Source: Acidimicrobiales bacterium (lineage in GTDB: Bacteria > Actinomycetota > Acidimicrobiia > Acidimicrobiales > VFJN01). Taken from it: 64,000 bases of DNA. The notes below the pieces were generated by a model. It worked only from the letters and a program-made list of their open reading frames with translations. It ran no database searches and was not told the origin of the DNA. Shown piece after piece: positions 40,979 to 42,192 of this stretch. The first letter of the stretch is position 1; every line of letters begins with the position of its first letter. The translations under genes and the position numbers were made by a program. The stretch is from the NCBI GenBank assembly GCA_035641315.1, contig DASQUK010000244.1, positions 45,303 through 109,302 on the forward strand, read 5' to 3'.

Positions 40979-42192
40979 GCGGGCGGCCCCCAGCGCCACA
41001 GCGCGGTGCCGACGGTGAGCCCGGCGCCGAAGCCGCAGAGCAGCAGCAGGTCGCCGGGTGCCAGGCGACCGGCGTCGGCCTCCTCGGCCAGGGCCAGCGG
41101 GATCGAGGCGGCCGAGGTGTTGCCGAACCGGTCCACGTTGCTGAGGGTGCGCTCGGCGGGGACGCCGATGCGGGGCAGCACGGCGTCGACGATGCGGGCG
41201 TTGGCCTGGTGGGGGACGAACCACGTCACGTCGTCGGCGCCGCAGCCGGCCCGCGCCAGCGTGCGCTCGACCGAGGCGGTCACGGCCCGCACCGCCCGCC
41301 GGAACACCTCGCGGCCGTCCATCCGCAGGTAGTGCTCGCCGCTCGCCACGGTCTCGGTCGTGGCGGGCCGGGCACTGCCGCCGGCGGGCACGACCAGCAG
41401 GTCGATCCCACCGGGATCGCCGACGAGATCGCAGGCCAGGAGCCCTGGCGTGGCGGTGGCCGACGACGGCGCCGGCTGGGCATGGTCGCCGTTGGTGGGA
41501 GTGGGTCCGCCGGTGCCTGTGAGCACGAGCGCAGCGGCGGCGTCGCCGAACAGGACTGCCGTGGCGCGGTCGTCGGGGTCGGTGACGCTCGTCATCGTGT
41601 CGGCGCCCACCAGCACCGCGCTCCGGGCCATCCCCTGGCCGACCAGCGCCGCGGTGGTGGCGAGCCCGTAGACGAAGCCGGCGCAAGCGGCGTTGAGGTC
41701 GAACGCGCCGCCGGCGATCCCGAGCTCGGCGGCCACGATGGCGGCGGTCGCGGGGATCGGCCGCTCGGGTGTGCTGGTGGCGACGACCACCAGGTCGACG
41801 TCGCCCGGCGCGACGCGCGCCCGGTCGAGCGCCATGCGGGTGGCGGCGACCGCGAGCGGCCCGGTGGACTCGCCGGCGGCGGCCACCCGGCGCTCACGGA
41901 TGCCGGTCCGCTCGACGATCCACTGGTCGCTGGTGTCGAGGGTGCGGGCGAGGTCGTGGTTGGTGACGCGGCGCTCGGGCAGGGCGTGCGCCCATCCGGC
42001 GACGGCGACCCCGGGATTGACGACTCGGCCGGAGGCCGAGGCCGCTTCTTGCGTACCGGCGGAGGGCGGTAGCGAGGGGGTGGCGCTGAGGATGCGGGGC
42101 CGCTGCCGGTGTGTCACGCCGGCGGCGGTAGGCCCCGCACCGGAGGCGACGGGACCCGTGAGCGGAGGTGCGGGCGGGCGTAGCCGGCTCAT
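40975..42192 (-). CDS. fabH: Beta-ketoacyl-ACP synthase III FabH (N-terminus apparently supplied by repeat element)
   Basis: [16 protein letters not shown], the active-site Cys context (NAACAGF), and HQANARI. Homology to FabH starts at [10 protein letters not shown] (about 42021). The only canonical in-frame starts are GTG 42117 and ATG 42192, both inside the repeat. Confidence 0.85.
   Translation of the reverse strand: [405 protein letters not shown]
42022..42192 (-). repeat. Operon-junction dispersed repeat, copy B (171 bp)
   Basis: Its reverse complement begins ATGAGCCGGCTACGCCCGCCC, with the ATG sharing one nt with the upstream TGA. It ends ctcggcc-tcc-ggccgag-tc and aligns with copies A and C. 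Confidence 0.85.

Follow-up and report, generated by a model that had tools for sequence, protein, structure and literature searches.

Where does translation of fabH begin when no canonical start codon stands between a repeat and the fold of the enzyme? The question arises in an Acidimicrobiales bacterium (assembly GCA_035641315.1), in a stretch of 64,000 nucleotides (nt) of contig DASQUK010000244.1 (positions 45,303 to 109,302, hereafter the window), where fabH, the gene for KAS III, is preceded by a copy of a dispersed, hairpin-forming element that is open in the fabH frame. A preliminary description of the locus had proposed that fabH lost its native start when a GTG directly after the element became GTC, and that initiation of this gene now depends on the element. 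The comparative evidence presented here favours another reading, namely that fabH is very probably translated from its ancestral ATG at 42192, with the element lying right after this codon and read in frame as a 57-residue N-terminal tail.

Much of the anatomy in the preliminary description was borne out (Table 1). Upstream of the fold, the only canonical in-frame starts are ATG 42192 and GTG 42117. The A of the former (42192-42190) is the final base of the TGA of the upstream gene (42194-42192), and beyond the latter the next in-frame ATG, GTG or TTG is the GTG of codon 103, past the RTGIRERR segment. The alignment of the element copies also confirmed that the position of the fabH GTC reads GTG in another copy of the window, copy C. 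The lack of a canonical start between element and fold supports the proposal that FabH is read through the element and carries a Pro/Ala/Ser/Arg-rich extension. Its length, given earlier as 26-57 residues, is 57 when counted from the ATG; the lower figure does not hold, since a start at the GTG would leave 32. Both starts had been placed inside the element, which is right for GTG 42117 and wrong for ATG 42192, a codon that lies at the element boundary and, on the evidence below, is the native start.

To define this native start we compared the 120 best FabH homologues, all from Acidimicrobiales-type metagenome assemblies. Most of them are predicted by gene callers to carry 12-30 non-conserved residues ahead of the conserved GVAVAGWG (e.g., P0002), and in many the leader MSTTAPVIDDLAPDTGPLSGTAVSATG precedes VLVAGWGH. 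The closest element-free relative, L047, has a FabH core 91% identical to that of the window, and its DNA contains the empty site: it reads ...ATCCTCTGATGAccgcgacc..., the junction ATCCTCTGATGA being followed by a non-conserved 21-residue leader and then VAVAGWAH. The window and L047 are identical through TGATGA and again from GTCGCCGTCGCCGGATGGGCGCAC (the resumption is also given as GTCGCCGTCGCCGGATGG). In the more distant element-free loci L049 and L050, fabH starts with a GTG overlapping the upstream stop. Two suspiciously short FabH calls (P0048 and P0081) were checked for a hidden element and proved to be element-free, with GTGA-overlap starts; for P0048, encoded at L049, the NCBI start is a CTG inside the first strand (MIAGWG...), and a junction GTG followed by an open leader lies upstream of it. 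As L047 starts at the same junction as the window, these comparisons indicate that ATG 42192 is the ancestral fabH start, in an ancestral -1 overlap with the upstream stop, and that the element directly after ATGA stands in for about 20 native leader codons.

The same element occupies the same junction in three further lineages, L043 (P0003), L044 (P0004) and L045/L046 (P0025), whose FabH cores are 81-89% identical to that of the window. In every element-bearing allele an open frame leads from the junction RTG (GTGA, TGATG or ATGA) into fabH, and the alleles differ by three indels, each of 3 nt. Codon 1 is the sole pre-fold start common to the four alleles; L043 has no other, and L044 has none before a GTG at codon 64, which falls in the first strand. 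L044, an independent assembly of a relative, also reads the same GTCGTCAATCCCGGG at the two GTC codons, which indicates that the GTC at 42021-42019 is not a sequencing error for GTG, a possibility that the preliminary description had allowed for. The predicted products of the four alleles are 405, 398, 351 and 341 residues long, and gene callers disagree about their starts.

Table 1. Features of the fabH junction and of the element copies in the window (window coordinates)
Feature	Position	Strand	Remarks
fabH (KAS III) frame	40975..42192	-	405 codons, from the junction ATG to TGA
Proposed fabH start, ATG	42190..42192	-	TGATG, overlapping the upstream stop (-1); element-free relatives start here too
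In-frame GTG, codon 26	42115..42117	-	unlikely start: unconserved, no Shine-Dalgarno motif, within hairpin
GTC GTC, codons 57-58	42019..42024	-	element/fabH junction; not a degraded start codon; same bases in L044
Element copy B	42021..42192	-	about 170 nt, 3'-truncated (no GAGG...ATGA module); FabH residues 1-57 in frame; native leader replaced
Core long hairpin, copy B	42078..42157	-	GGGTCC...GGTGCGGGGCC / GGCCCCGCATC...CACCC; GTG 42117 in the apical part
3' hairpin, copy B	42025..42044	-	GGCCTCGGCC TCC GGCCGAG
Gene upstream of fabH	42192..42497	-	101 codons; biotin/lipoyl-like domain, lysine-free; start overlaps the fabD stop (ATGA)
Element copy C	45791..45965	-	between a FecCD-type permease gene (stop TGA 45964-45962) and an ABC ATPase gene
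Element copy A	5333..5563	+	nested 57-nt insert; GTG 5333 in GTGA overlap with the stop of a 251-codon open reading frame upstream

The element belongs to a family with a phase rule of its own. A search with the family profile (nhmmer) returned exactly three copies in the window, with E-values of 1e-39 to 1e-47, and a 30-base core motif gave 3 matches there against 0 expected in shuffles. A scan with a 22-base core pattern, taking a single genome for each species, gave 42 loci, of which 41 lie in metagenome-assembled genomes from at least 10 assemblies and one is a chance match in Streptomyces; the named assemblies among the 41 are labelled Acidimicrobiales, Acidimicrobiia or Actinomycetota. 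Copies of the window kind (type 1) run from RTGAGCCGGCT... through a core hairpin of about 80 nt to ...GGCCTCGGCCTNCGGCCGAGTCG, usually followed by AGGTnnnnnnATGA. Type 2 copies share the core hairpin within other flanks (CTTCCGGCGGGGCTGC - core - GCGGCCCCGCCTCCCTCGCGG) and are found past stop codons or RNA-like genes. The core may itself be the mobile or functional module.

Type 2 comprises L004, L007, L012, L015-L019, L023, L025, L032, L033 and L041. It follows, for instance, an EF-Tu-like C-terminus in L016 and a conserved RNA-like 3' end in L012, L015, L017 and L018, and in several copies a second terminator-like hairpin comes after it.

The core hairpin has 26 consensus pairs, five of them with compensatory double changes. 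As folding energy alone is not enough (single-sequence RNA folding gives a z-score of only about -1.4), the claim of structure rests on this covariation. At Rfam gathering thresholds only two tRNAs reach the gathering score in the window, and a permissive Rfam search on the element gave no family match, the best hit, JUMPstart, scoring 15.9 bits (E = 0.7) where the gathering score is 35.

Our census covers 36 type 1 copies in relatives, plus L048. About 29 of the 36, and all three copies of the window, lie between co-oriented genes and share their orientation. In 15 complete copies the start codon shares bases with the upstream stop (RTGA or TGATG) and opens a mini open reading frame (mini-ORF) of 46-81 codons without internal stops, whose TGA overlaps the downstream start (ATGA or GTGA); most of them carry a GAGG Shine-Dalgarno-like motif 5-8 nt before the terminal ATGA or GTGA. 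The lengths of these copies fall into six classes (137, 155, 182, 185, 188 and 242 nt), every one of them 2 modulo 3. One further complete copy is out of phase (L029, 187 nt, from a long-read assembly). Another 11-12 copies are in-frame fusions, without the 3' GAGG-ATGA module (L036 lacks only the terminal TGA), in which the frame continues into the downstream coding sequence; they include the three window copies, the four fabH alleles and two orthologous argB loci. Six copies face a convergent gene, four of them with no junction start or with an early stop and two, the orthologous pair L002/L011, with a start and a 104-codon open reading frame that lies outside any coding frame. L008 and L034 are other exceptions. 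At the orthologous loci L014, L022 and L024, which have a convergent gene downstream, the stop at the 5' end of the element is TAA, TGA and TAG, respectively, and the junction start is absent or the mini-ORF interrupted, a natural control in which the open frame is kept only before a co-oriented gene.

Between them, the copies use all three frames across the middle of the element (e.g., as RSRVLSPPVRG... or ...APQAAPHPRRHPLAT), which suggests that openness and phase are conserved and the peptide is not. The frame subfamily of the fabH copy carries 2-nt and 1-nt deletions relative to the consensus, and a complete copy of this subfamily exists at L048 (P0121), where an ABC gene is followed by ATGA, 61 codons, GAGGTGTGCTCATGA and the next gene. 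A search of a set of 5.8 billion proteins with the 58-residue element peptide returned 10 candidates and one match (P0121), so that it is of no use as a census, presumably because of low complexity.

Other fusions resemble the one at fabH. In L005 and L010 the element lies between argJ and argB, with the conserved ArgB N-terminus (ILLEALPYIQRFRG) adjoining in frame; as at fabH, ILLEALPYIQRF comes right after the element with no start codon nearby. Copy C is open and in frame into the ATPase, and its ATG (45965-45963) overlaps the permease stop as ATGA. Element-free ATPase homologues have a native leader, e.g., VSTTATAVDGTVRMRG-VSVELGG, which is replaced in copy C. We read the empty site on a sister-sample contig, L051, where a native GTGA start overlaps the permease stop at the place at which the window has ATGA and copy C; this comparison indicates that the GTG right after copy C is not the ancestral ATPase start either. 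The L044 contig, with the element at fabH, is recorded as also encoding an identical element-free ATPase (P0123), and copy C is thus apparently the younger insertion, with the repeat family active since these lineages split. Copy A is likewise open and in frame into a long downstream open reading frame, whose hydrophobic N-terminal stretch VAILVAISMAAA directly follows the element (window 5540-5600, plus strand). A nested repeat of about 57 nt (GGCTCCGACGCYGTGWCNCCCGCTC..GGCGGCTYCGCCRCCGGGCCGCTCSGGCCC) sits within the central hairpin of copy A (5397-5455, plus strand) and of L001 and L039, and in the 3' hairpin instead in L010; because its length is a multiple of three, the phase of the mini-ORF is kept. 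In L008, element-coded RRGRRTASACGRV stands directly before LLLLLLLGLLAGC, a lipoprotein-type lipobox, with no start codon between them; signal peptides may draw their charged n-region from the element peptide at its Arg-rich 3' end.

RTGA is found at both ends of complete copies and singly at the two empty sites, L047 and L051, both of which match 3'-truncated copies. The paired RTGA could reflect a duplication or be part of the element. No terminal inverted repeats stand out in the element alignment or folds.

The FabH enzyme behind the element appears intact. The identical protein P0001 has precomputed Pfam matches to PF08545 and PF08541 (ACP_syn_III, N- and C-terminal domains), and the 405-residue sequence is on record, 100% identical, from two contigs. 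Against solved FabH structures (PDB chains), phmmer gave E-values of 1e-71 to 1e-60 with aligned residues starting at 61-65 and ending at about 400. In an alignment of 50 homologues the earliest invariant columns are G66 and W67, and C170, H328 and N358 are invariant; from general knowledge of the FabH motifs AACAGF, HQAN and GNTSAAS, we take these three to be the Cys-His-Asn triad. The AlphaFold 2 model gives residues 1-51 a pLDDT (predicted local distance difference test) below 50 and places the first strand at 62-70, so that the 57-residue extension is probably disordered. Codon changes in the FabH core are more often synonymous than non-synonymous (e.g., 65 vs 42 and 87 vs 56), and in the element-coded part non-synonymous changes are the more frequent kind; these counts point to purifying selection on the enzyme and not on the sequence of its extension. 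As evidence of translation, dN/dS on the element was considered and set aside, being confounded by constraint on the repeat at the nucleotide level; the excess there is in any case non-synonymous.

The fabH gene lies in an operon of the order fabD / 101-codon gene / fabH / fabG / acpP / fabF in a high-GC genome, the junctions being, in this order, ATGA, TGATG, ATGA (the fabH stop over the fabG start), a junction that is spaced and has a Shine-Dalgarno motif, and GTGA. In translational coupling the two commonest spacings are NTGA and TGATG (PMC12548453). Orthologues of the 101-codon gene give weak or faint Biotin_lipoyl (PF00364) matches. Its position between fabD and fabH is conserved, and in the Acidimicrobiales loci examined it is always start/stop-overlapped with fabH. 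Elsewhere in the window, an inverted repeat with 56-nt arms, 75% complementary and 50 nt apart, occurs at 34951-35112 and is unrelated to the element family.

Because ATG 42192 overlaps the upstream stop (TGATG), fabH initiation would occur by coupling, as at most junctions of this operon. We infer that ribosomes ending the upstream gene reinitiate at this ATG and, unwinding the hairpin-rich element as they read it, go on into FabH. The native leader of about 21 residues would give way to 57 residues coded by the element, which the mature enzyme would retain. Historically, the element probably inserted at the ATGA junction, with a later deletion of its GAGG-ATGA module and most of the leader, a one-step event being the less likely course; only in-frame deletion products would have survived. 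For the family as a whole, full copies would relay translational coupling across the insertion through the mini-ORF, mostly with the help of the GAGG motif, and copies without the 3' GAGG-ATGA module, such as that at fabH, would persist only as in-frame fusions.

Several observations weigh against this reading. The support for translation is comparative throughout. Two of the three frames across the element are stop-free in this GC-rich DNA, and because openness alone is weak evidence, the argument leans on phase and on indels in multiples of three (three events at fabH). No Shine-Dalgarno motif precedes ATG 42192, as is also the case at the native junction, and a stable hairpin lies 35 nt downstream of it; structure just past an upstream stop is reported to lower coupling (PMC12548453). 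Close to the fold, L045 offers further in-frame starts (GTG, codon 51; ATG, codon 60), and in some lineages, of which it is an example, an internal start may be used. Finally, the element-bearing alleles (P0001, P0003, P0004 and P0025) are not monophyletic on a neighbour-joining tree of the FabH core.

On this tree the element-free P0002 is nearest to the window FabH and P0025 is nested among element-free sequences; the four alleles nonetheless share the same element subfamily and fusion junction. The scatter suggests exchange of the 5' end by recombination, or an old polymorphism. A single ancient insertion followed by vertical inheritance was considered and dropped on account of the tree.

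Among the other explanations for the start of FabH, initiation at GTG 42117, giving a 32-residue extension, is an improbable one. This codon is a canonical in-frame start before the fold and had been put forward in the preliminary description as a candidate; it is missing from the three other element-bearing alleles, the aligned codon being GAG in L044, whose element is 95% identical, and GCC in L043 and L045. No purine-rich Shine-Dalgarno motif lies upstream of it, and it sits in the apical part of the strongest predicted hairpin. Scarcely better or worse placed is a mature FabH of near normal length, which we also regard as improbable: translation would begin internally or at a non-canonical codon (e.g., GTC, ACG or CTG-type) close to the element's 3' end, or the extension would be trimmed off afterwards. 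In its favour, other copies of the element often have GTG, ATG or TTG before GCCTCGGCC with a GGAG-like motif upstream, and such codons, like those gained by the L045 lineage near the fold, suggest that selection can favour shorter products; one annotation pipeline also gave a CTG start to a relative. The window, L044 and L043 are without codons of this kind, however, the GGAGG motif has decayed to GGTACGCAAGAAG in the window, and keeping the frame from codon 1 would be needless.

The loss of a native start directly after the element, with fabH now relying on a start that the element supplies, is very unlikely. The GTG of copy C opposite the fabH GTC and the lack of a canonical start between element and fold are in its favour. 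Inspection of fabH starts in relatives with and without the element, which the preliminary description had called for, finds the junction RTG at the fabH loci whose DNA was read, and the claim fails on three counts. As FabH proteins of this clade never started beside the fold, there is no basis for a GTG-to-GTC loss: element-free relatives start 12-30 codons further upstream by gene-caller prediction, and in the DNA of L047, L049 and L050 at an RTG in the very place of ATG 42192. The post-element GTG of copy C is no guide to an ancestral start, given the junction GTGA at L051, and GTC GTC AAT is common to the window and L044. The stop/start overlap, moreover, predates the element, so that initiation would not depend on it. 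Least probable of all is that this fabH is a crippled copy whose work is done by another KAS III gene: tblastn finds one fabH in the window, and a view of 64 kb leaves room for paralogues elsewhere in the genome, but the intact frame with its invariant C170, H328 and N358, the synonymous excess in the core, the conserved operon position and the same fusion maintained in four lineages all speak against it.

Translation of fabH from ATG 42192 through the element, our preferred reading, can be set beside known repeat systems. For mycobacterial interspersed repetitive units (MIRUs) and Rickettsia palindromic elements (RPEs), the likeness discussed here is one of architecture and behaviour. In the summaries available (Supply et al., 1997, as given in PMC12548453 and PMC3184786), MIRUs are described as short GC-rich repeats with internal inverted repeats that lie between co-oriented operon genes; their open reading frame overlaps the upstream stop and the downstream start at its two ends (-4 spacing), and tetranucleotide repeats occur at both ends. 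According to the account in PMC12548453, they are thought to insert at start codons, preserving coupling and little disturbing the expression of the target gene. The Acidimicrobiales element is likewise GC-rich with inverted repeats, lies between co-oriented genes and has an RTGA...ATGA/GTGA mini-ORF, and its host also belongs to the Actinomycetota. An open reading frame of the MIRU type is present in the 15 in-phase complete copies and broken in the sixteenth; the fabH copy has its 5' half only, the 3' end being fused. In contrast to MIRUs of 40-100 nt, which often form tandem arrays, the element measures 137-242 nt and was seen as single copies, with no tandem copies. At its centre is a covarying hairpin of about 80 nt, found in a different sequence context as well; most of its complete copies carry the GAGG Shine-Dalgarno-like motif, its host class is Acidimicrobiia, and many copies are in-frame fusions rather than separate mini-ORFs.

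RPEs, in the summary of Ogata et al. (2000) given in PMC10969869, are palindromic repeats of about 105-150 bp that lie in frame within unrelated housekeeping genes and are translated as fold-compatible peptide segments. The fabH, argB and ABC-ATPase copies are similarly in frame, with hairpin covariation and, in the four fabH lineages, indels of multiples of three only. RPE peptides are conserved and occupy internal protein sites, whereas the element peptide is unconserved, is found only right after the start codon and by default belongs to a separate mini-ORF between genes. As in ordinary coupling (PMC12548453), the fabH TGATG and both ends of complete copies use the two commonest spacings; unlike in ordinary coupling, a dispersed repeat either brings the motif with it or targets it. 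Repetitive extragenic palindromes and miniature inverted-repeat transposable elements, like the element, are dispersed and GC-rich, form hairpins and have no capacity to encode a transposase. No terminal inverted repeats were seen in the element's alignment or folds, and no Rfam match was obtained. The element differs from them in its orientation with the flanking genes (about 29 of 36 copies; 6 face a convergent gene), in its fixed position at stop/start junctions and in its constraint on phase.

A limited search of the literature found no description of such a repeat family in Acidimicrobiia or Acidimicrobiales. It is tempting to speculate that the repeat is a mobile cassette of Acidimicrobiales, active and not described before, which specifically colonises NTGA overlaps in operons. 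It would survive there through its own "ribosome relay": a start placed on the upstream stop, a reading frame that stays open regardless of the peptide and, in most complete copies, a Shine-Dalgarno-like motif with a terminal ATGA. Copies that have lost the 3' module, along with the host leader, would become new disordered N-termini of essential enzymes, as in FabH and ArgB, or charged n-regions of signal peptides. We consider this wider proposal rather doubtful, and in a stronger version of it the shared hairpin would give the junctions a common translational control.

By analogy, the element would be a system of a known kind in a new setting, a MIRU-like repeat family in Acidimicrobiales of which some copies behave like RPEs. 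The most striking part of the original claim, an essential gene depending on a parasite for initiation, is not demonstrated by these data. For annotation, the comparative evidence favours the long form of FabH, begun at the junction, and the starts of other genes behind the repeat, such as argB and those of ABC ATPases, should be judged in the same way. The family offers a natural example of selection on the act of translation and not on the peptide, with phase and openness kept while three frames are read. Altogether, these observations suggest that the logic proposed for MIRUs extends beyond mycobacteria and that such elements can become N-terminal protein extensions.

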